The notes below the pieces were generated by a model that saw only the letters and a program-made list of their open reading frames with translations, was not told the DNA's origin and searched no databases. A DNA stretch of 47,713 nt, from IMG/VR virus record IMGVR_UViG_2541047774_000010; one strand, given 5' to 3'. This DNA comes from a virus (lineage: Duplodnaviria; Heunggongvirae; Uroviricota; Caudoviricetes). Positions 783-47,713 of this stretch are shown here, piece after piece (the stretch's first letter is position 1; each line of letters starts with the position of its first letter). The position numbers and the translations under genes were made by a program.

Positions 783-857
783 ATGACGTTGTCTCCTTAT
801 TTGCAAGAGGTGGCGAAGCGCCGCACTTTTGCCATTATTTCTCACCCCAATAATTAA
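783..857 (+). pseudogene. prfC: 5' fragment of peptide chain release factor 3 gene, cut by prophage integration
   Basis: ATG at 783 encodes [22 protein letters not shown], matching the RF3 N-terminus as recalled; the frame then reads NN-stop (855-857) where AT-rich phage DNA begins. Full prfC encodes about 529 aa. Confidence 0.85.
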
Positions 858-1007
858 GCCTAAATTAAAGCTCTTTTACTTTTTCAAAGTCCTTTCAGTT
901 AATTGATGTTTGGTTTTATAAGTCATTTAAATACAGTTAGTTATGTGGCTTCTTTAATTGAAAATTCTTTCATGTAACTTTAAATCGATCAGGTTGCTTT
1001 CATCAAA

Positions 1008-1070
1008 AATCTGTACATATGCTTGTACATAATGTACAAAGCAGCAGAGGTGTTTTGCGATTTGTACAAG
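1008..1070. promoter_or_regulatory. Cluster of four TGTACA palindromic hexamers upstream of int (candidate arm-type or regulator binding sites)
   Basis: TGTACA at 1012-1017, 1025-1030, 1033-1038 and 1063-1068 in AT-rich DNA directly upstream of the int RBS (AAGGTGAG). Confidence 0.4.
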
Positions 1071-1077
1071 GTGAGTA

Positions 1078-2313: not shown

Positions 2314-2471
2314 CCAGAGCGTAATCATATCTGCCAGTCCGCTGCGGATACCTTGTGTACTGGGTTTTTAGCCAGACTACGTTAACCGGTAGCTTCAGTA
2401 TTTGGGGTGTCGGCAGGAGTTTGATGGTTTATTGGGTTACTGTGGGACTAAGGATGTAGGGATGCCAATCG

Positions 2472-3605
2472 ATGAATTATGAAAAATATCATAGCACAAA
2501 CAGAAGCAAGGGTTTGCGAACCTTCTGCTACTTAATTTATTATGTGCAGGTGATTTTTAATGTGATGAAGTGTTTTATGACTCGCGGAAACTTTGATTTT
2601 ATAAACTCTAACGTGGTTTTCTCAGAAGCCGATAAGTCATTGTGGATTGATCTCATTAACACCGATTGTATTTGGTATGATATGATAATTAATCCTCCTG
2701 ATGATATAAGAACAAATAAGATAATAAAGAACTATCTCAGAATTATGGAAAAATATACGAGGGAAAGCTGTGAAAAGAGATTTATTTATTTCTTAGGTTC
2801 AAGAAAAAAAGTGAGGTTTTCAACCAAGAAACAGCCTAGGTATAACCCATTCACAAAAAATATAGTATTCACTCTGTTGATTGGCAAAGAAGAGCGAAAG
2901 CTTCGGATAAAATATTCCTTTTGCACGTTTACGCAGAATGGGGTAGTGAAGGTAACTCCAAATGTTAGAGTAACTGAGAAGTTTCTCTACATTGAATATG
3001 AAAATGGCAATTTATGTGTGATGTCAGTTCATGATTTCGTAAACGGACATTATATTGATTTAGGAATTCATACAGAAGTGCATTACGTAGGATATACACG
3101 TCATCCGCATCGGCGCCCTGTTGATTTTATTCACCGTGGCTTATCAAAGATGCTGTATAGCGTTTCAAATGACGATAATGATTTTTTTGTTTGTTTTAGT
3201 ATATTTAATCCAAGGATTATATCTCTGAATAATAAATGTAATGTGGTCTTTAATATTTCAAATTCTCTACTGGATGAAATTGATGTTGATAATGAGGGGA
3301 GAATTATTGAAAACTGCTTAATACGTTACTTTGATCCTAAGCTTCAAGATGATGACAAGGAAAGTAAAAGGTCAGATTTAAATAAAATGTTTATGGACCT
3401 GGTGGAAAATAAAAAAATTAAAAAAATATACGTTAATTTTCAATATGAAAGGAATAATGAGTATTTCTGCTTTTACTCTAAAGTTGTTCCGCCGAAATTT
3501 CATCATTTCTTTGTGTTGGATTTTTCTGATGGCAAGATAAATATTGATAGAGACCAGGATATGATGACTCAGATGGCATTGTGCATGGGGTATTATAATT
3601 ATTAA
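2472..3605 (+). CDS. Hypothetical protein, AT-rich cargo gene of unknown function (start may be internal, near 2562-2577)
   Basis: 377-aa ORF in visibly AT-rich DNA (not quantified) unlike flanking phage genes; Lys/Asn/Ile/Tyr/Phe-rich; no family recognised; possible N-terminal hydrophobic stretch CYLIYYVQVIFNV; AGGGA 10 nt upstream of ATG 2472. Confidence 0.6.
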   Translation: MNYEKYHSTNRSKGLRTFCYLIYYVQVIFNVMKCFMTRGNFDFINSNVVFSEADKSLWIDLINTDCIWYDMIINPPDDIRTNKIIKNYLRIMEKYTRESCEKRFIYFLGSRKKVRFSTKKQPRYNPFTKNIVFTLLIGKEERKLRIKYSFCTFTQNGVVKVTPNVRVTEKFLYIEYENGNLCVMSVHDFVNGHYIDLGIHTEVHYVGYTRHPHRRPVDFIHRGLSKMLYSVSNDDNDFFVCFSIFNPRIISLNNKCNVVFNISNSLLDEIDVDNEGRIIENCLIRYFDPKLQDDDKESKRSDLNKMFMDLVENKKIKKIYVNFQYERNNEYFCFYSKVVPPKFHHFFVLDFSDGKINIDRDQDMMTQMALCMGYYNY

Positions 3606-3814
3606 TATTTCGCCTGATGCCAACTCAAAATCTTTTTTGTCGCATCCATTGTGGATTAATATTCAGAGGTAAGGGGTATCTGCGGAATTTATATTTTGCA
3701 GGATGAGCATACAATACATGATATAACATCTGTTTTTGGCACAGAGCATATAGTCAGATTATGTTTAGTTCTGTGCCATAGATGGATATTATCTCACCTC
3801 TTGGCTAACTCTCA

Positions 3815-4009
3815 TTACTCAATAACTCCAGCAAATCTGTATATTTTGCGTGATGCCCATTTATTTGGGCAGGATTTAATATCAGGATCTGGAAAATCTG
3901 GCCTGTATTTCTGGCCTGTCCTCCTGTTTACGCTGTTCCAGCGAAGCACCGTCGATATTGAAACGCCACAGAATTCGGCGACTTGTTTTGTTGTCATTAA
4001 GTTGCTCAT
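3815..4009 (-). CDS. AlpA/excisionase-family HTH DNA-binding protein (putative Xis or regulator)
   Basis: 64-aa ORF with strong RBS (GGAGGGG); TKQVAEFCGVSISTVLRW helix-turn-helix followed by YRPDFPDPDIK...KIYRF, resembling the AlpA/Xis pattern. Confidence 0.5.
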   Translation of the reverse strand: MSNLMTTKQVAEFCGVSISTVLRWNSVNRRTGQKYRPDFPDPDIKSCPNKWASRKIYRFAGVIE

Positions 4010-7733: not shown

Positions 7734-8277
7734 GCATCACTGGAAAGTGGAAAAACAGCCTGAGTGGTACGTGAAAGCTGTCAGAAAAACTATCGCGGCG
7801 TTGCCGGGGGGTTACGCTGAAGCTGCTGAGTGGCTGGATGTAACAGAGAACGCTTTATTCAACCGCCTTCGTGCAGATGGCGATCAGATTTTCCCGCTGG
7901 GATGGGCAATGATTTTACAGCGCGCTGCTGGCACTCACTACATTGCGGATGCTGTCGCACAGTCTGCTGGTGGGGTGTTTGTATCGCTTCCTGAAATTGA
8001 GGAAGTAGAGAACGCCGATATAAACCAGCGCCTGCTGGAAGTCATCGAACAAATCGGGAGTTACTCAAAGCAGATTCGTTCGGCAATCGAAGATGGGGTA
8101 GTGGAGCCACACGAGCAGACAGCAATTAATGATGAGTTGTATCTGTCGATTTCGAAGCTCCAGGAGCATGCGGCACTGGTCTACAAAATTTTCTGCGCTC
8201 CAGAAAAGAGTGACGCCCGCGAGTGTGCAGCTCCGGGCGTCGTGGCGTTTTGTGTCTGTGGAGAAACTAACGCATGA
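7726..8277 (+). CDS. Early regulatory protein in the CII position (YdaT/CII-like); GTG start
   Basis: 183-aa ORF beginning at a GTG with AGGAG 8 nt upstream, overlapping the cro stop; the call rests mainly on position. Confidence 0.45.
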   Translation: MGKHHWKVEKQPEWYVKAVRKTIAALPGGYAEAAEWLDVTENALFNRLRADGDQIFPLGWAMILQRAAGTHYIADAVAQSAGGVFVSLPEIEEVENADINQRLLEVIEQIGSYSKQIRSAIEDGVVEPHEQTAINDELYLSISKLQEHAALVYKIFCAPEKSDARECAAPGVVAFCVCGETNA

Positions 8278-8602
8278 ACAGTTTAACGGCAAATAACCGT
8301 TTGTCGCAACAGCTGGTGGTCAGCGTCTCTGAACACCTGTTGTTACGGCATGAATGCAGATTACCAAATCACCAGGCTGTAAGTAACCACAGAGAACTTT
8401 ACCTGACTGTGGGGGGCGAGTTGTGCAGGAACTTAACCGCTGGTTTCGTGACGGAAGAGGGCTTTATGTTCATGTTATTCGTTGGGAACCAGAAACACAG
8501 CGCGTTATCTATCTTCGCAAAGACTACCCGCATGAGTGCTTTAGTCCTTTGTGGAAATTCAGGCGTGATTTTGTTGAGTGTGACGGACCACCAACACATT
8601 GA
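8274..8602 (+). pseudogene. Small early gene split by a G6 homopolymer (frame disrupted in this sequence)
   Basis: ATG 8274 with good RBS (GGAGA); frame 0 runs through G6 at 8411-8416 into non-coding-looking sequence; the protein-like continuation VQELNRWFRDGRGLYVHVIRWEPETQRVIYLRKDYPHECFSPLWKFRRDFVECDGPPTH (8423-8602) lies in the +1 frame. Confidence 0.4.
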
Positions 8603-8687
8603 TTCTGCCATTCCGGGACGTTACACTGTTCAGGCACCTTATAAAACGGGTGCCGGGCGTGGAAACCCGGAATTCACCAAAGCGCAC

Positions 8688-8711
8688 AACCGCGCTCTTG
8701 CGGTTTTTTTG
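8688..8711 (+). terminator. Intrinsic terminator (tR1-like position)
   Basis: AACCGC-GCTCTT-GCGGTT hairpin followed by T7; it lies inside the track's 8274..9425 ORF, arguing that region is not coding. Confidence 0.45.
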
Positions 8712-8879
8712 TGTCATGAGCAGCATTACGCCCAAATTATGGTGGGGCGTGCAGGGCCAACTTCGGTTGGGCCGGGTTCTTTGGTGACCGGTATTTCCAC
8801 CCCTGTACGTCTCACCACCAATAAGGTCGTGGAAAGCCTTGGTGGTGAGTTATTAAAAATCACCAAAGAGGCTGCCATC

Positions 8880-9425
8880 ATGGCTACGATCCCAACCCTC
8901 ACTCAACCTGAAATTGCCATCGTTGATGGTCAGGTTGTTACTTCATCCCTGGCTGTTGCCAACTTCTTCTCCAAACGTCATGACGATGTACTGAAAAAGA
9001 TCCGCACGCTTGAATGCTCAGCATCATTCACTGCCCGCAATTTTTCGGTGAGTGATTACACTGATTGCACAGGTCGCAAACTTCATTGCTACCAAATCAC
9101 ACGCGATGGTTTTGCGTTTCTTGCTATGGGTTTCACGGGTAAACGTGCTGCCCAGTTCAAAGAGGCATATATCAATGCCTTTAACCAGATGGAGAAACAG
9201 CTTTCAAAGCCCGCTGTACCGAGCGACGTTGCACATAACGCCAGCGTTCTCTGTTCCTACATTTCATCAATTCATCAGGTCTGGCTGCAGCAGCTTTATC
9301 CTATGTTGGCAAAAGCCGAATCTCCGCTGGCTGTTAGCTTATATGATTATATTAATGATGCTTCGGCGCTGGCCTGCCTCATAAATTTGTCGCTGAACCC
9401 TTCAGAGGTAAGGGGGCGCAAATGA
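8880..9425 (+). CDS. rha: Rha-family phage regulatory protein (antirepressor-like)
   Basis: 181 aa from MATIPTLTQPEIAIVDGQVVTSS with RBS AAGAGG; motif GFAFLAMGFTGKRAAQFKEAYINAFNQME is typical of Phage_pRha. Confidence 0.8.
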   Translation: MATIPTLTQPEIAIVDGQVVTSSLAVANFFSKRHDDVLKKIRTLECSASFTARNFSVSDYTDCTGRKLHCYQITRDGFAFLAMGFTGKRAAQFKEAYINAFNQMEKQLSKPAVPSDVAHNASVLCSYISSIHQVWLQQLYPMLAKAESPLAVSLYDYINDASALACLINLSLNPSEVRGRK

Positions 9426-10463: not shown

Positions 10464-10952
10464 ATGAGTCTTTTGAATGAAGTTCAGAAATTCATTGAAG
10501 CCCATCCGGGGTGTACTTCCGGAGACATTGCAGATGCTTTTGCAGGTTACTCACGGCAGCGCGTTCTGCAGTCAGCAAGCAAGTTACGTCAGAGTGGGCG
10601 TGTGGCTCACCGTTGTGAAGGAGATACACGCAGACATTTCCCGCGCCTGACTGAGAGAGCGCAGGAGCCGGAACCACAACCAGTTCGTGAAACCAGACCT
10701 GTGCGCAATTTCTATGTCGGCACTAACGATCCCCGGGTAATTTTGTGCCTGACCCGCCAGGCTGAAGAACTGGAGTCCAGGGGCTTATACCGTCGTGCTG
10801 CAACCGTGTGGATGGCGGCATTCCGTGAAAGCCACTCCCAGTCAGAACGAAACAATTTTCTGGCGCGCCGTGAGCGGTGCTTACGGAAAAGCAGCAAGCG
10901 CGCTGTATCGGGTGATGAGTGGTATCTGTCAGGGAATTACGTGTGGGCTTAA
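10464..10952 (+). CDS. Hypothetical protein with C-terminal PerC-like motif
   Basis: 162 aa; C-terminal AEELESRGLYRRAATVWMAAF...SERNNFLARRERC resembles the PerC/Pch regulator signature (GLYRRAA) as recalled. Confidence 0.45.
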   Translation: MSLLNEVQKFIEAHPGCTSGDIADAFAGYSRQRVLQSASKLRQSGRVAHRCEGDTRRHFPRLTERAQEPEPQPVRETRPVRNFYVGTNDPRVILCLTRQAEELESRGLYRRAATVWMAAFRESHSQSERNNFLARRERCLRKSSKRAVSGDEWYLSGNYVWA

Positions 10953-11278
10953 TGACGACGTTAACTCAATGCCAGCAGCAGGTGCTGGATATGCTGATTT
11001 CTTATCAGAAAGAACGTGGTTTCCCGCCAACCAATCAGGAGGTGGCAGCCATGCTGGGATACCGTTCGGTGAATGCAGCGGTGGAGCATCTTCGCGCACT
11101 GGAGAAAAAAGGCGTCATCACGATAAAGCGTGGCGTGGCCCGGGGTATCACGCTTCATACCACAGTGAAGGACGACGACAGCGAGGCAGCCGGGATTATC
11201 CGCGCACTGCTTGCCGGTGAGGAAAACGCCAGACTGCGTGCAGCCCACTGGTTACATGAGAGGGGCCTGAAAGTATGA
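10952..11278 (+). CDS. LexA DNA-binding-domain-like protein lacking a peptidase domain
   Basis: Start MTTLTQCQQQV (TAATG coupling to the upstream gene); LTQCQQQVLDMLISYQKERGFPPTNQEVAAMLGYRSVNAAVEHLRALEKKGVI resembles the LexA N-terminal winged helix; no S24 domain follows. Confidence 0.55.
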   Translation: MTTLTQCQQQVLDMLISYQKERGFPPTNQEVAAMLGYRSVNAAVEHLRALEKKGVITIKRGVARGITLHTTVKDDDSEAAGIIRALLAGEENARLRAAHWLHERGLKV

Positions 11279-12482: not shown

Positions 12483-13430
12483 GTGACCGTGAGAGCACTA
12501 CTGACCCCTGAAATTGCCCCGCGTATGGGGATTGTATTGTTCAGGCCAGGTTCAGAGCTGATGCCCCTGTTTATGCAGGGGCGTGTCCTGCTGGAGCCTG
12601 AGCCGGAACGTTATTCATCTTTCGCCAGTGGTGCCGTTCCGGCGGCATCACAACCGCTGGCGGATGATCCTGCCGTTCGGGCCGTGTTCCGCAATGAGGC
12701 AGTGATCCGTCGTGCTGGTGGCGTGGAATGTCTTGAAAGCTGGTTACTTCGTGAAAAGGGCTGTCAGTGGCCTCATTCCGACTGGCACAGCGAGAACATG
12801 ACCACAATGCGGCACGCTCCGGGAGCAATTCGTCTGTGCTGGCACTGCGATAACCAGCTGCGTGACCAGTTCACGGAACGGCTGGAATCAATGGCAACGG
12901 ATAACTGTGCCCGCTGGGTGTTGTCTGTCGTGCGTCGGGATCTCGGTTTTGATGACAGTCACGTTGTGACAATGCCGGAACTGTGCTGGTGGCTGGTTCG
13001 TAATGATTTGGCGGATGCCTTACCGGAAAGTGCAGCCCGTAAGGCACTGAGATTACCGAAGCCTGTTGTGCCATCTGTCACCCGGGAAAGTGACCTTGTG
13101 CCTTCGGTTCCTGCCACCAGCATCATCCAGGATAAAGCGAAAAAGGTGCTGGCGCTGAAAGTGGATCCGGAGTCGCCGGAGTCTTTTATGTTACGCCCCA
13201 AACGTCGCCGCTGGGTTAATGAAAAGTACACGCGCTGGGTTAAGACGCAGCCGTGCGCATGTTGTGGAAAGCCAGCTGATGATCCCCACCACCTGATAGG
13301 CCACGGTCAGGGTGGAATGGGTACAAAAGCGCATGATCTCTTTGTGTTGCCTTTGTGCAGAAAGCATCACGACGAGCTGCATGCGGATACCGTGACATTT
13401 GAAGAGAAGTATGGCTCCCAACTGGAGTAA
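12483..13430 (+). CDS. ydfU: DUF968-family protein, YdfU-like, C-terminally truncated by IS4
   Basis: 315-aa ORF with Cys/His cluster (CACCGKPADDPHHL...CRKHHDELH); the stop TAA at 13428-13430 is supplied by the first bases of IS4; the original last ~20 codons sit after the IS (14854-14917). Confidence 0.75.
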   Translation: MTVRALLTPEIAPRMGIVLFRPGSELMPLFMQGRVLLEPEPERYSSFASGAVPAASQPLADDPAVRAVFRNEAVIRRAGGVECLESWLLREKGCQWPHSDWHSENMTTMRHAPGAIRLCWHCDNQLRDQFTERLESMATDNCARWVLSVVRRDLGFDDSHVVTMPELCWWLVRNDLADALPESAARKALRLPKPVVPSVTRESDLVPSVPATSIIQDKAKKVLALKVDPESPESFMLRPKRRRWVNEKYTRWVKTQPCACCGKPADDPHHLIGHGQGGMGTKAHDLFVLPLCRKHHDELHADTVTFEEKYGSQLE

Positions 13431-14853
13431 TGCCAGTCAGTTAAGCAACTGACTGGCTCTTTTTCGGGGCTGTGGGGTATTTCCAGGGCCTCTCCTTTAC
13501 CACTCTCGGGAAGGCCCTTTCCCTTCTTGTCGGTAATTTCACAAGTTGTCCCATACTTGCAAGATCGTGCATCAGCTCCGGTATACGTCCCGGTGAAGCG
13601 CCCTGCAATGTCATCAGCATTCTCATCACCATTCCGCATGATTCTGAGAAACTCAGTTGATTCGGCCAGTAACCTTTCAGATGTTCCGCCATTTTAATCA
13701 TCTGATATCTCACCAGATTATAAGCCAGTAAGACACCCCACAGCTCTTGCTCCACAAGCTCCGGCTTTTTACTTCTCAGCGTCAGCCTGCTCAGTTGCAT
13801 CGTCTGTTTTATCTCCCTGTATCCCAGTTCGATTTCCCAGCGATGACTGTACAGATCCGCCATTTCTCCTCCGGGGAAGCGCATGGCGTCCGTCATCGAC
13901 GTCAGCAGATGGCAGACTTTTCCTTTGCGCGTCACGGTCAGCAGGCGGGCTGTCACCTCATTTCCCAGTCCCGGCCACTTTTTTCGTGCCTGCGGGCTGG
14001 TTTTCAGCTTCACCAGATGATCGCCTTTACCCAGTTTTCTGATCTCTTCATATTGCGCTCCCTTTCTGAGAGGGATCATCCAGTGGCGGTGTTCTCCCGC
14101 CAGGCTCCAGGCATTTAACAGTCCCAGTGAGTAATAACCTTTGTCCATTAACGTCAGAGTGTTATCGCCGGTTTGTTCTATAAGTTGCTCAGCAAGCTCA
14201 TTTTCGCTGTTCTTCATCGTGCCGAAGGCTGCAGCCGTCAGCAGATGGCTGGTCAGTTCCATCTGGCAGACCATTTTGACCTGCGGGTAGAGCGCCGGGT
14301 TCCCGGCATGTGTCTGGCGGGGGAAGGCTGCATCGTTCTCTGGTGTATCCGGTGTGCGCCAGAACACACCATCGATGGCCAGCAGGGTCAGGCCGCACCA
14401 TTGCGGATGCGGCGTGGCGTTATGCCAGAGCTGCGCTGTTTTCGTGAACACGCGGCGGACAGCCTCACTTCCCAAGCGCTGGCGGGCCTGAATAACGGCA
14501 CTGGGGGCAACGAAGGGGCGATTGCCCGGCAGCATGATGTCCAGGCGATTCACAATCTGGTGAAGAGGTTCTTTACGCTCAAGCGCCATGCCAACAATAC
14601 ACCAGACCATCATTTCGAGGGGAAGACGGCGCTTGCGTAGCGTTACAGTACCTGATTCGGCAAGGCAACGAGAGATGAGTTCGGGGTCGAGGTAATCCCC
14701 CAGAGAAGTCAGTGGGTTACGCAGAGAATCGTAACGGGATACCAAATCAAGGGCCTGTCCAATGTGCATAAAAAAATCCGGAAACGAGTGAGCGTTTCCG
14801 GATTCTTACACAGCCACTGGATCGGTCAACTGATCCTTAACTGATCGGCATTA
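13428..14853 (-). mobile_element. IS4 insertion sequence, complete, with 13-bp target site duplication
   Basis: 1426 bp, the canonical IS4 length; terminal inverted repeats TAATGCCAGTCAGTTAAGC (left) and reverse complement of TAATGCCGATCAGTTAAGG (right); flanking direct repeats CTCCCAACTGGAG at 13415-13427 and 14854-14866. Confidence 0.92.
13441..14769 (-). CDS. insG: IS4 transposase
   Basis: 442-aa ORF matching the IS4 transposase in length and sequence as recalled. Confidence 0.93.
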
Positions 14854-16311: not shown

Positions 16312-16611
16312 AAAAATTCCTTAATACTGATAACTGGGCGCACTATACACACGTTCCTGAAGAAAGCTATAGTTTTTTGATGGGGTTGAAGATGGCTGGA
16401 TGTCTAAAATAAACATTGCTTCATATGTTCAACTATGCGTTAATGATTGCGTCGGTTTGAAGAACAGACGATATACGAAGTAGTTTACTAAAGCAGTTCT
16501 CATTTCAGGTGTTATTCACTTATTCCTTCTTTGAGTCTCTCCAATTAAGTACGAAGTCGTTTCTGTTATACAAGCCATTTATGCCGAAAGGCTCAAGTTA
16601 AGGAATGTAGA

Positions 16612-16827
16612 ATGTCAAATAAAATGACTGGTTTAGTAAAATGGTTTAACGCTGATAAAGGTTTTGGCTTTATTTCTCCTGTTGATGGTAGTAAAGATGT
16701 GTTTGTGCATTTTTCTGCGATTCAGAATGATAATTTTCGAACCTTATTTGAAGGTCAAAAGGTTACCTTCTCTGTAGAGAGTGGTGCTAAAGGTCCTGCA
16801 GCAGCAAATGTCATAATTACTGATTAA
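16612..16827 (+). CDS. cspB: Cold shock protein CspB-like
   Basis: 71 aa [38 protein letters not shown], a CspA-family protein matching CspB as recalled. Confidence 0.88.
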
Positions 16828-17108
16828 AATTCATAGTTTGTCTGTATACGATAACGAAGAAGGCTGATGCCTGAGTGGAGATACAGACAGAGTGGTGAAT
16901 ATTGGATCTCTTTAATAAATAGTAAGGAGGTCCAATACATGAAACAATGGCCAGCATATTTGGCAATAACTTAATCAGGAAAAGTATGCTAACCATTGTG
17001 GTGAAGTGCAGGTTTGCTGCATGAATAGTTTTACAGCAGAAGCTAACTGCTGGCATAGCAAAACAAAGTGCGTAAGTGGATGACTCCCACAAAAAGTACC
17101 ACAATATT

Positions 17109-19700: not shown

Positions 19701-20060
19701 ATTAATATTAAATCGGATTATTTTTAGCGCTGAATGTGAAATTTAAATAAAAAGGACTCTTCCATGAGTCAAAATCCTTGAAATCTTAAGGGTAAGATAA
19801 AAGGTCATTAGACAGAATGACACGTTTTATTAATAAATAAAGCTATTGTTTCATTCGTGTGTTTTTCTTTACAAAAGTAATCCTTGCTATGGTTGGTTAA
19901 TCATGCGTTAATGGTGTTCTGGTTTGTTACAAAATTATCTGAAGCAGTCATTGTTATAATTTTATTATTTGTACCTCTTGAGATCTCCTTGTTGGTTTTT
20001 CTCTCTGATATTTTTTTTCGGACCATTCTGCCCAAGGGCTAACTTCTTCAAAAGGTAATA

Positions 20061-20276
20061 ATGATGTCTAACAAAATGACTGGTTTAGTGAAATGGTTTA
20101 ACCCTGAAAAAGGTTTTGGTTTCATCACGCCGAAAGATGGTAGCAAAGATGTGTTTGTCCATTTCTCAGTTATTCAGAGCAACGATTTCAAAACGTTAAC
20201 TGAGAATCAGGAAGTCGAATTTGGTATTGAGAACGGACCTAAAGGCCCCGCGGCTGTTCATGTAGTGGCACTTTGA
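20061..20276 (+). CDS. cspI: Cold shock protein CspI-like
   Basis: [70 protein letters not shown] matches CspI as recalled. Confidence 0.88.
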
Positions 20277-20480
20277 GGTAGAAAATATTACAAACCATAT
20301 TCACTTTAGATGCCCGTGTTGCCATGGTTCTCAGTATAGAACATCATCTTTTGATGTTTCTGACAGGAATCCTTTCGGGGCAAAATGTATCTTTTGTAAA
20401 TCAATGATGATTACATTTGATAATATTTCACAATACTTAAATGTTAGCCGTCTGTCGTTAGATTTAAGAAAGTGAAAATG

Positions 20481-21626: not shown

Positions 21627-21779
21627 TCACCATAACTGCTAACCATTCTGACCATTTCACAAGTGACAGAGTCAATATCGTATTCTGTCACTGTCAGGCT
21701 AATACAGTACTGCAATTCAACTACAGCAATGCCTCGTATTTAGGTGAATTGATCCTACCCACGTAATATGGACACAGGC

Positions 21780-22646
21780 CTAAGCGAGGTTCTGGTTTTC
21801 AAATTGTTCCGGACTGAGGCCGCCACACCAACTGTGCCGCCGCCACCGATTGTAATCACATTCGATATAATTAAACACCGTTGCCCGCATTATTTCCCGG
21901 CTGATAAAGTGTTCTCCATGGATACATTCCACTTTCAGCGAATGAAAGAAGCTTTCCACGCAGGCATTATCGTAGCAGCAACCTTTTGCGCTCATACTTC
22001 CACGCAGATTATGCCGCTTCAGTTGCGCCTGATAATCTGCTGAACAGTACTGGCCTCCACGGTCCGTGTGAACGATAACGTTCCGGGGCCTCTTACGCCG
22101 CCACAGCGCCATCTGCAGGGCATCGCAGGCCAGTTGCGCCGTCATGCGTGGCGACATTGACCAGCCAATAACGGCACGTGACCACAGGTCAATGACCACT
22201 GCCAGATACAGCCAGCCTTCATCTGTACGTAAGTACGTGATGTCTCCTGCCCACTTCTGGTTCGGGCCACTGGCGTAAAAATCCTGCTCCAACAGATTTT
22301 CTGACACAGGCAGGCCGTGTGCGCGGTAGCTGACCGGGCTGAACTTCCGGGAGGCCTTTGCCCTCAGTCCCTGACGGCGCAGGCTTGCCGCCACGGTTTT
22401 TACGTTAAAGGGGTAACCCTGAGCACGCAGTTCATCCGTCAGGCGTGGGGCACCGTAACGCTGTTTTGACCGGGTAAAAGCCGCGAGGACAACGCTGTCG
22501 CAGTGTTGGCGGAACTGCTGACGCGTGCTTATCCTTGTCCGCCGCTGACACCACGTATACCAGCCGCTGCGGGCCACCCGGAGCACGCGGCACATTGCTT
22601 TGATGCTGAACTCAGCCTGATGTTTTTCAATAAAGACATACTTCAT
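21780..22646 (-). CDS. insF: IS3 transposase OrfB (expressed as OrfAB by -1 frameshift)
   Basis: 288 aa [21 protein letters not shown]..., matching IS3 InsF as recalled. Confidence 0.93.
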
Positions 22647-22942
22647 TTCAGACGATTCGCAAAGTATGTCGCGGCCTTTTGGAGGATAGCCAGCTCTTCA
22701 TCCCGTTCTGCCAGCTGGCGTTTGAGACGTGCAATCTCGGTAGACATCTCCAGTTCACGTTCAGAAGACGTCTGCTGATTTTGCTGTTTACTGCGCCAGT
22801 TGTAGAGCTGTGATTCATACAGGCTGAGTTCACGGGCTGCGGCAGTAACACCGATGCGTTCAGCAAGCTTCAGGGCTTCACTGCGAAATTCAGGCGAATG
22901 CTGTTTACGGGGTTTTTTACTGGTTGATACTGTTTTTGTCAT
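22643..22942 (-). CDS. insE: IS3 transposase OrfA
   Basis: 99 aa from [19 protein letters not shown], matching IS3 InsE as recalled; overlaps orfB at a frameshift window. Confidence 0.9.
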
Positions 22943-23239
22943 GTGAGTCACCTCTGACTGAGAGTTTACTCACTTAGCCGCGTGTCCACTATTGCTGGGT
23001 AAGATCAAATTTACAATATCGTCCAGTTCGGATGCCGGCTGCATTTCTGAAGATAAGGCATTTCGGTTCGCGTATTTTCCCCTCATGCTCGTCAGTCCTG
23101 CGCGTAGTAAGAAACAGGACACTCACACTAATTTGTGTGGGCATGCTGTGATGTCCTTCTGAATTATCCCCACGCCATTATGTAAAGCTCTGTTTCAGAT
23201 GCTCGTCACGGTTGTCAGGCTGTCGGGTCCTCCCTGGGG

Positions 23240-45837: not shown

Positions 45838-46412
45838 TGGCATTCAGAATGAGTGAACAACCACGGACCATAAAAATTTATAATCTGCTGGCCGGAACTA
45901 ATGAATTTATTGGTGAAGGTGACGCATATATTCCGCCTCATACAGGTCTGCCAGCAAACAGTACCGATATTGCACCGCCAGATATTCCGGCAGGCTTCGT
46001 GGCTGTTTTCAACAGTGATGAGGCATCGTGGCATCTCGTTGAAGACCATCGGGGTAAAACGGTTTATGACGTAGCGTCAGGGGACGCGTTATTTATTTCT
46101 GAACTCGGTCCGTTACCGGAAAATGTTACCTGGTTATCGCCGGAAGGGGAGTTTCAGAAGTGGAACGGCACAGCCTGGGTGAAAGATGCAGAAGCAGAAA
46201 AACTGTTCCGGATCCGGGAGGCGGAAGAAACAAAAAACAGCCTGATGCAGGTAGCCAGTGAGCATATTGCGCCGCTTCAGGATGCTGCAGATCTGGAAAT
46301 TGCAACGGAGGAAGAAATCTCGTTGCTGGAAGCATGGAAAAAGTATCGGGTATTGCTGAACCGTGTTGATACGTCAACTGCACAGGATATTGAATGGCCA
46401 GCACTGCCGTAG
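45837..46412 (+). CDS. tfa: Tail fibre assembly protein Tfa
   Basis: 191 aa, translationally coupled to stf (TAATG); typical Tfa N-terminus ([36 protein letters not shown]). Confidence 0.85.
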
Positions 46413-46509: not shown

Positions 46510-47100
46510 TTATATGTCAGGTGTCTGAAGTTTTGCTTTGGCTCTTAAAATGGTTTGCCGCGAGGTTTTGAATTCCCGGGCAATGGCACTTATACTTACA
46601 CCTGACTTAATCCGTTCGAATACCACCTGTTTCTGTTCTTCATTTAACACAGGTGGTCGACCAAAACGTTTCCCTGCGCCCCGGGCTCTTACTATCCCGG
46701 AATGAGTGCGTTCAAGTAAAAGGTCTCGTTCAAATTCAGCGACTGCTGAAATTACTTGCATCATCATTTTTCCTGTTGGACTGGTCAGGTCAATGCCCCC
46801 CAATGCTAAGCAATGCACTCTGATACCTGTTTCGGTCAGTTGTTCCACTGTTTTCCTGATATCCATTGCATTACAACCAAGGCGATCCAGTTTTGTCACA
46901 ATCAATTGATCACCACATTTCAGGCGAGCAAGCAACCGGTTAAAACCAGGACGCTCACTGGTTGCTGCTGAGCCGCTAATGTGTTCTTCGATTATTTGCT
47001 GAGGTTTGATTTTAAAACCTGCACTTTCGATTTCCCGGCGTTGATTTTCGGTGGTCTGATCCAGCGTTGATATCCGACAGTAAGCAAAAATTCGAGACAT
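46510..47100 (-). CDS. pin: Serine recombinase / DNA invertase, PinQ/PinR-like
   Basis: 196 aa; catalytic Ser in [10 protein letters not shown]-terminal HTH; matches the K-12 prophage invertases PinQ/PinR as recalled. Confidence 0.9.
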
Positions 47101-47479
47101 AGTGAGACTCTATACGAAATTGGTGTACATATCATAATGCATATCCAAAAATTATTTCGCTTATTATTGTACATATTTGTATGTATACGTTCGAAAATAA
47201 ACGAATTCGGATGCAGTCCCGTAATTTTGGTGTAACCAAAAATCGATTTTTTGAAAAATGGCTTTAACTCGGTTTGTTTTTCGAACTCCGGGCGGACTCG
47301 AGGAAGACGAATAATAGTGTTGTATGTTATTTCAACCAGATTTTAAGTTGTTTGGTCGTGGAAAAGTGGAGCAAAATGTTGTTAAAGTGGAAAAATGGTA
47401 AAAAAAGTAGGTTGTTGCGGAATAACGTAGTTGTTGATATTTTTTTAATGCATTGAAAAATTATTTTTCAGGGGGGGTA

Positions 47480-47713
47480 TTACACTTTACCATTTAAATT
47501 TTGGTTGTCTTTAAGAACTGATATCGCTGTTTGTAATAATTCTTTGTTATCCAGCCATGACTTTTTCTTTATGTTTCCTTCAATGTAATCAAGCAATGTT
47601 CTGGTATTGATAGGTCTTCCCTGTTTTGCTACTTCCACGACAGCATCTCCCAGGATAATTCTGACTTCAGGAAGCTGCGCAGGGAACCACTTTAGGGTGT
47701 CTTTTGATTTCAT
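47480..47713 (-). CDS. ydfK: Cold shock-induced small protein YdfK/YnaE-like
   Basis: 77 aa MKSKDTLKWFPAQLPEVRIILGDAVVEVAKQG matches YdfK/YnaE as recalled; the start codon is the last three bases of the window; long AT-rich leader upstream. Confidence 0.8.
   Translation of the reverse strand: MKSKDTLKWFPAQLPEVRIILGDAVVEVAKQGRPINTRTLLDYIEGNIKKKSWLDNKELLQTAISVLKDNQNLNGKV

Follow-up and report, generated by a model that had tools for sequence, protein, structure and literature searches.

A prophage-borne 5′ end probably rebuilds prfC at the right attachment site of a lambdoid prophage in Escherichia coli

The DNA analysed here is a 47,713-nt stretch (IMG/VR record IMGVR_UViG_2541047774_000010; hereafter the window) that begins in host sequence and passes into a prophage. 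We consider it very likely that the window contains attL of a lambdoid prophage of the cdtI/Stx1a-Stx2c ‘prfC-site’ type, and that prfC is rebuilt at attR rather than destroyed. The arrangement itself, a prophage in prfC combined with replacement of the 5′ end of the gene, has already been described. An earlier note on this DNA held that prfC is inactivated in the lysogen unless the far end of the prophage replaces its 5′ part. All of the relatives that we inspected have such a replacement together with an intact 528-aa ORF. Since prfC is rebuilt by phages of this type with a 5′ end of their own, inactivation of the gene is very improbable.

RESULTS

A 14-bp att core marks the junction of a prfC remnant with phage DNA

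The features of the left end of the window, and the extent of the prophage, are as follows.

15–692, + strand: yjjG (pyrimidine 5′-nucleotidase), the host gene upstream of prfC; an ORF annotated yjjG in matching genomes
693–720, + strand: promoter-like site of native prfC, TTGCCT-16-TAAAAT; a pattern match from a consensus scan
783–857, + strand: native prfC remnant, comprising the start and codons 1–22 (783–848) and then a phage-encoded Asn-Asn-stop
834–847: attL copy of the att core, the 14-bp ATTATTTCTCACCC, identical in attL, attB, attR and attP
848–1077: P′ arm of the attachment site, 30% G+C
1012, 1024, 1033 and 1063: four TGTACA boxes in the P′ arm, just upstream of int
1078–2313, + strand: tyrosine integrase, 411 aa, with Pfam domains Arm-DNA-bind_3, Phage_int_M and Phage_integrase
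3815–4009, − strand: candidate excisionase or AlpA-like small HTH protein, 64 aa
848–47713: lambdoid prophage body, which runs off the window

The prfC start codon is at 783, in agreement with the K-12 annotation, and RF3 residues 1–22 can be read to position 848, after which the frame continues with AAT AAT TAA. This remnant could encode a 24-aa peptide; its equivalent in APEC E123 is called by PGAP as an incomplete CDS without a C-terminus. The earlier note had recognized a prophage inside the prfC coding sequence past codon 22 with an integrase adjoining, and both the alignments and the integrase domains agree with that placement. Alignment with an uninterrupted prfC locus, which had been proposed as a means of defining the att core, was carried out with K-12 and yielded the 14-bp sequence at 834–847. 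When the window was aligned with K-12 attB and N51 attR, the switch from host to phage sequence fell at 847/848. The junction had previously been placed at 849, which is right to within one base; the offset arises because the C at 848 is already phage DNA, replacing G as the third base of codon 22 without changing the amino acid. The abrupt change to AT-rich, integrase-bearing phage DNA is equally clear, as G+C falls from 0.517 in 1–847 to 0.296 in 848–1077.

Copies of the 14-bp core were found in attB (K-12), attR (N51 and E123) and attP (phages cdtI and Ayreon), and GenBank records of Stx phages, e.g. LC727876, annotate the identical 14 bp as an insertion duplication. The core corresponds to prfC codons 18–22 (Ile-Ile-Ser-His-Pro), directly before the G1/P-loop motif of RF3. 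The yjjG-prfC′-integrase stretch was present at a coverage of at least 80% in 699 of 5,426 complete E. coli genomes, and the junction was also found in IMG/VR prophage contigs. Four matches to the yjjG-prfC region in the E. coli genome collection sit on plasmid-labelled records. Rfam, tRNA and repeat scans returned no feature in 783–1077, and the repeat scan of 700–1200 gave short, chance-level pairs only. The promoter-like site of native prfC faces int, and a scan for terminator-like sites between the two found none; this site could therefore add to int transcription.

The right junction of relatives carries an intact hybrid prfC

The last base of the window falls at the ydfK start codon, still within the prophage. 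Among complete genomes N51 is the nearest: 94% of window positions 1–25000 could be aligned with it, at 100% identity, the gap being an IS4 copy, and identity over 23000–47713 is 99.7%; absence of this one IS4 copy from N51 is the main difference, and the two sequences are collinear up to the final base of the window. A second copy of the att core is found in N51 at 1,125 bp past the position matching that base. The intervening segment contains ynaM, a dinI-like gene (− strand), a 220-bp intergenic region and a surrogate prfC 5′ end. By comparison with N51 the window would thus lack about 1.1 kb, consisting of ynaM, the dinI-like gene, the surrogate prfC 5′ end and the attR core, and the genome from which the window was derived presumably has the same attR as its relatives.

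At attR of N51 a ribosome-binding site, an ATG and 21 phage codons are joined in frame to prfC codon 23. The fusion reads ATG ACA AGC CTT TTG GCC GCA GAG GTA GCG AAA AGA AGA ACC TTT GCA ATT ATT TCT CAC CC/G GAC GCC GGT (the slash marks the end of the core) and continues into prfC. The hybrid product is a 528-aa RF3, WP_000202566.1, and an identical RF3 protein is encoded in APEC E123, where the prophage whose right end adjoins it is a different one but has the same integrase. The hybrid matched TIGR00503, the prfC equivalog model, over its full length with a score of 1087 bits (cut-off 467). We also examined contigs in which a tail-fibre or Pin protein identical to that of the window is encoded next to prfC; the 528-aa ORF was intact in 10 of 10. 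The phage::prfC right junction was identified in 700 of the 5,426 complete E. coli genomes, compared with 699 for the left junction plus int; among the matches listed in the right-junction search, the six with full coverage were annotated prfC.

The earlier note had suggested locating the other prophage end and looking there for an in-frame start followed by prfC codon 23. The relatives show exactly this arrangement, in sequence that the window does not reach, as the attR core is expected about 1,125 bp past its end. Likewise, the intact full-length prfC at this locus that the note had named as evidence against its own reading is found in the relatives, outside the window's own sequence.

The surrogate prfC start is part of the phage genome

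A predicted attP was composed of the N51 right arm, the core and the window left arm, and was queried against phage genome records. It was recovered as one contiguous stretch in phages 2H10 (98% coverage), cdtI (97%) and Ayreon (85%) with 96.5–96.8% identity, and it was 94% identical to Stx-phage records among the matches listed. The order of attP, read directly in cdtI and Ayreon, is dinI-like gene, intergenic region, mini-prfC 5′ end, core, AT-rich arm and int; the dinI-like gene is present in cdtI and 2H10, and the Ayreon match starts after it. As the surrogate is contiguous with the core in free phage genomes, we conclude that the imitation of the prfC 5′ end, 21 codons long, belongs to the phage itself and lies immediately left of the crossover.

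The only amino-acid differences between the host and phage versions are at residues 2–8, where the host has TLSPYLQ and the phage has TSLLAA, with one residue fewer. This segment is variable between genera too, as native prfC of Pantoea also differs here. Over the EVAKRRTFA codons, a small sample of about 10 codons from one surrogate lineage, the surrogate and native sequences differ in six codons (8 nucleotides), and every difference is synonymous. Such a synonymous-only pattern would be expected if the phage segment is translated within RF3 and preserved by selection. The native and surrogate starts have the ATG context AATTATGAC in common. The surrogate runs straight into the G1/P-loop motif (SHPDAGKT), which explains both the need for its preservation and how the site could be conserved enough to serve as an att site in many hosts.

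No + strand promoter upstream of the surrogate passed the consensus scan, and a relaxed scan identified only −10-like hexamers with poor −35 elements, e.g. an extended −10, TGcTATGCT. As the scans gave only weak candidates, we claim no promoter for the hybrid gene. The dinI-like gene, ynaM, ydfK and pin are all on the opposite strand, so that any promoter of hybrid prfC would have to lie in the 220-bp dinI-prfC′ intergenic region, from which the gene is presumably transcribed. An SOS-box-like sequence, CTGTATGAATAAACAG, was read by eye upstream of the dinI-like gene in the N51 attR arm (L002 16813–16828). Since the dinI-like gene is divergent from surrogate prfC, the 220-bp region also has a probable LexA site.

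An IMG/VR scan with integrase alignment, directed at divergent surrogate N-termini, gave no new attP variants; all 80 loci were E. coli prophages with 97–100% identity whose sequence is cut off at attL or close to it. When GTDB was scanned with one genome for each bacterial species, integrases with 82–83% identity were found in Trabulsiella guamensis and Pantoea stewartii. In these loci, which were followed on the attL side only, int comes after a prfC fragment that ends directly after codon 22 at the corresponding core, ATCATCTCCCACCC or ATTATCTCGCACCC, which is precisely the prfC position used in the window. Their AT-rich arms have diverged from that of E. coli except for an invariant block of TGTACA boxes just upstream of int.

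Integrase, arm boxes and prophage body

The window integrase is 98% identical at the protein level to the integrase of phage cdtI. It is of the P4/SXT type and would belong to the ‘SXT cluster’ that has been published for integrases directed at prfC. In that classification of tyrosine recombinases the cdt1 phage integrase and IntSXT belong to one cluster, all members of which insert at prfC (PMC8138268), and by this clustering the window integrase would be related to that of SXT/R391.

TGTACA occurs 10 times in the whole 47.7-kb window, with four of the 10 in the P′ arm. The reconstructed attP has eight such boxes in a segment of about 420 bp; four precede the surrogate ATG and the other four precede int. 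A tandem module, TGTACATATGnTTGTACATAAT, is present in both attP arms. The boxes are candidate arm-type integrase sites and/or operator elements, possibly including the promoter-operator of int. The product of 3815–4009 had weak, sub-threshold matches to HTH_17/MerR and Xis_Gifsy_1, and may be an excisionase or AlpA-like protein.

The prophage body comprises immunity (cI/cro), replication, Q, lysis, terminase, head, tail and tail-fibre genes, which include the lambdoid set, followed by the Pin invertase and ydfK. Just past int is a 377-aa ORF without a Pfam match (2472–3605, + strand; G+C 0.354 in 2314–4000), which may represent cargo, as its place beside int is one where morons are usually located. 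Several matches to RNA families were also observed. Matches to isrK and C4 antisense RNA at Rfam gathering score (8634–8710 and 8735–8822, + strand) fall inside a long ORF, 8274–9425, for a Rha-type regulator; some lambdoid prophages usually have this pair as a P1/P7-like module for antirepressor control. In the Q-to-lysis region, the cspA thermoregulator leader was matched twice (16451–16890 and 19917–20322, + strand), which indicates two phage-borne cold-shock protein genes. A match to the Rfam IS009 sRNA (46180–46378, + strand) is in the 3′ part of the tail-fibre assembly gene. The Pin invertase-ydfK module at the right end (46510–47713, − strand) is common to Qin/Rac-type prophages at other chromosomal sites, from which it follows that the att/integrase module and the right-end module are mosaic units.

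Two insertion sequences interrupt the prophage. An IS4 copy at about 13428–14853 (transposase ORF 13441–14769, − strand), flanked by a 13-bp target duplication, sits in the 3′ end of a phage DUF968/YdfU gene. This copy is absent from N51, APEC E123 and PhiR63_1, its junction was found in none of the 5,426 complete genomes of E. coli, and no recorded protein is an exact match to the DUF968 product truncated by IS4. An IS3 copy at about 21751–23010 (ORFs 21780–22646 and 22643–22951, − strand), which N51 has too, is flanked by the lysis/moron region on one side and by the gene for the small terminase subunit on the other. Together the IS3 and IS4 copies suggest that the prophage may be decaying. 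At 10952–10955 the window is without a phage N6-adenine methyltransferase gene of about 650 bp that APEC E123 and PhiR63_1 have at this position.

DISCUSSION

A model for exchange of the prfC 5′ end

Our preferred model is as follows. The integrase would recombine the 14-bp attP core with the identical sequence in prfC codons 18–22. To the left of its core, the phage attP would carry a ribosome-binding region, an ATG and 21 codons that mimic the prfC 5′ end. Integration would detach the native promoter, ribosome-binding site and codons 1–22 from the gene, all of which would stay at attL before int, and at attR the phage mimic would become joined in frame to prfC codon 23. Past position 47713 the chromosome of the lysogen would then hold ynaM, the dinI-like gene and CAATTATGACAAGCCTTTTGGCCGCAGAGGTAGCGAAAAGAAGAACCTTTGCAATTATTTCTCACCCGGACGCCGGT, running on as an uninterrupted prfC. 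The hybrid RF3 encoded by the lysogen would have 528 aa and depart from native RF3 in residues 2–8 only. We infer that the hybrid RF3 is active; as prfC is non-essential, the prevalence of lysogens is by itself no proof of function.

Insertional inactivation, in which prfC is split and RF3 is lost because the hybrid ORF is untranscribed or because its altered N-terminus is inactive, appears unlikely to us. Integration does cut the remaining prfC off from its native promoter, its ribosome-binding site and codons 1–22, and our scans upstream of the surrogate detected no sigma-70 promoter of consensus type. Moreover, Bobay et al. (2013) list prfC in a table of genes ‘disrupted’ by prophages, and Ogura et al. 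(2007; PMC2323221) left transcription and translation of prfC in such lysogens open and called the gene non-essential. However, in every relative inspected the 528-aa ORF is intact, in frame and provided with an ATG of its own, the surrogate is present in free phage genomes, and its start shares the ATG context of the native start. In addition, the synonymous-only differences in the conserved beta1/P-loop lead-in are hard to explain if this segment is never translated. The related SXT element is reported to supply both a promoter and a new N-terminus for prfC (PMC8409611); the effect of an altered N-terminus on activity was left open by Durand (2021).

It is considerably less probable that the right end was rearranged or deleted in the window's genome alone, for example by an IS-mediated event in a decaying prophage, leaving prfC truncated. 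The IS3 and IS4 copies, the latter unique to this prophage, and the missing methylase gene of the relatives would fit such a history, and attR falls outside the window. Against this, the window is collinear with N51 to its last base, all contigs with the same right-end proteins beside prfC have the intact fusion, and attL and attR are found in 699 and 700, respectively, of the 5,426 genomes. The chance that the 847/848 junction is an assembly artefact or chimera, which the earlier note had raised, is negligible, the same junction being present in 699 complete genomes and in IMG/VR contigs and annotated in GenBank Stx-phage records.

Relation to other elements at prfC and to other integration strategies

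Phage cdtI reportedly uses the prfC site, and SXT/R391 elements are likewise said to integrate at prfC. Reconstruction of prfC at attR, as we favour it for the window, agrees with published accounts of this site. prfC is an integration site of Stx1 phages with replacement of the N-terminus (Ogura et al. 2007, PMC2323221), and phages carrying Stx1a and Stx2c have been found there (Nakamura et al. 2023, PMC10132054); we assume that the Stx1a/Stx2c phage records LC7278xx are the deposits of the latter study. The cdtI/Stx1a-Stx2c prfC-site phages, 2H10, Ayreon and PhiR63_1 share the 14-bp core, the surrogate MTSLLAAEV... and the dinI-like right-end gene with the prophage described here. The int side of attP in PhiR63_1 (47,976 bp) is 100% identical to the window, but the phage as a whole has another mosaic make-up and contains no IS. 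Mosaicism affects the cargo and structural modules of prfC-site phages, and the window is without stx or cdt genes. Its head module is of the ClpP-protease/capsid-fusion kind, in contrast to the lambda-type heads of PhiR63_1, and it differs from the prfC-site phages compared in having the IS4 and IS3 insertions.

SXT/R391 ICEs also enter the 5′ end of prfC (PMC2791158), at a 17-bp site with the attP consensus ATcATcTCtCACCCtGA (PMC9058013). The E. coli version of this site is ATTATTTCTCACCCGGA, the first 14 of whose 17 bp are the prophage core. SXT/R391 elements are conjugative, with tra genes, SetCD/SetR control and an Int that is 99% identical to IntSXT, whereas the window holds a tailed lambdoid phage; we found no conjugation genes (tra, setCD/setR) in the window, and head, tail and lysis genes are present instead. 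The dusA-specific integrative elements (Farrugia 2015; Durand 2021) differ in target gene, integrase lineage and element type.

Replacement of a displaced gene end is also the strategy of e14 and phage 21 at icd and of elements that integrate in tRNA genes, which bring a copy of that end and keep the target intact (Bobay 2013). In the icd and tRNA cases it is the 3′ end that is swapped, for which no promoter or start codon is needed, whereas at prfC the 5′ end is exchanged, including the translation start. Truly disruptive integrations include those of phi10403S in comK and phi13 in hlb. Disruptive prophages also lie inside a coding sequence but bring no replacement, such that the gene stays split until excision, while prfC receives a replacement in frame. 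In gene-disrupting integration the target ORF is truncated at both junctions; in all of the relatives examined here, the 528-aa hybrid ORF is intact. The ompW-site prophage is a further disruptive case (Bobay 2013).

Implications

One extension of the model, which we regard as speculative and probably incorrect, is that the prophage controls the RF3 level of the lysogen, the TGTACA boxes being Int/Xis arm sites that overlap the sole promoter available to the surrogate. The 140 bp that lead up to the surrogate ATG are occupied by four of the boxes, which mirror the four upstream of int, and in the relatives the surrogate arm is back to back with the dinI-like gene, which is probably controlled by an SOS box. 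If the boxes did overlap the promoter, the fidelity of translation termination would be coupled to the lysogenic or induced state, and int would be driven by the host prfC promoter left orphaned at attL.

The prfC-site arrangement occurs in about 13% of complete E. coli genomes, and pathogen lineages such as O145:H28, APEC O1 and S88 are among the carriers. The apparent knockout of prfC is an easy misreading, and prfC has been tabulated as ‘disrupted’ (Bobay et al. 2013); annotation pipelines and pangenome studies should treat hybrid prfC as an intact allele. The underlying biology is established: a conserved, P-loop-coding att site is used by phages and by SXT/R391 elements, with replacement of the 5′ end. 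As the element brings a 21-codon replacement, about one in eight complete E. coli genomes would encode an RF3 with a phage-encoded N-terminus.
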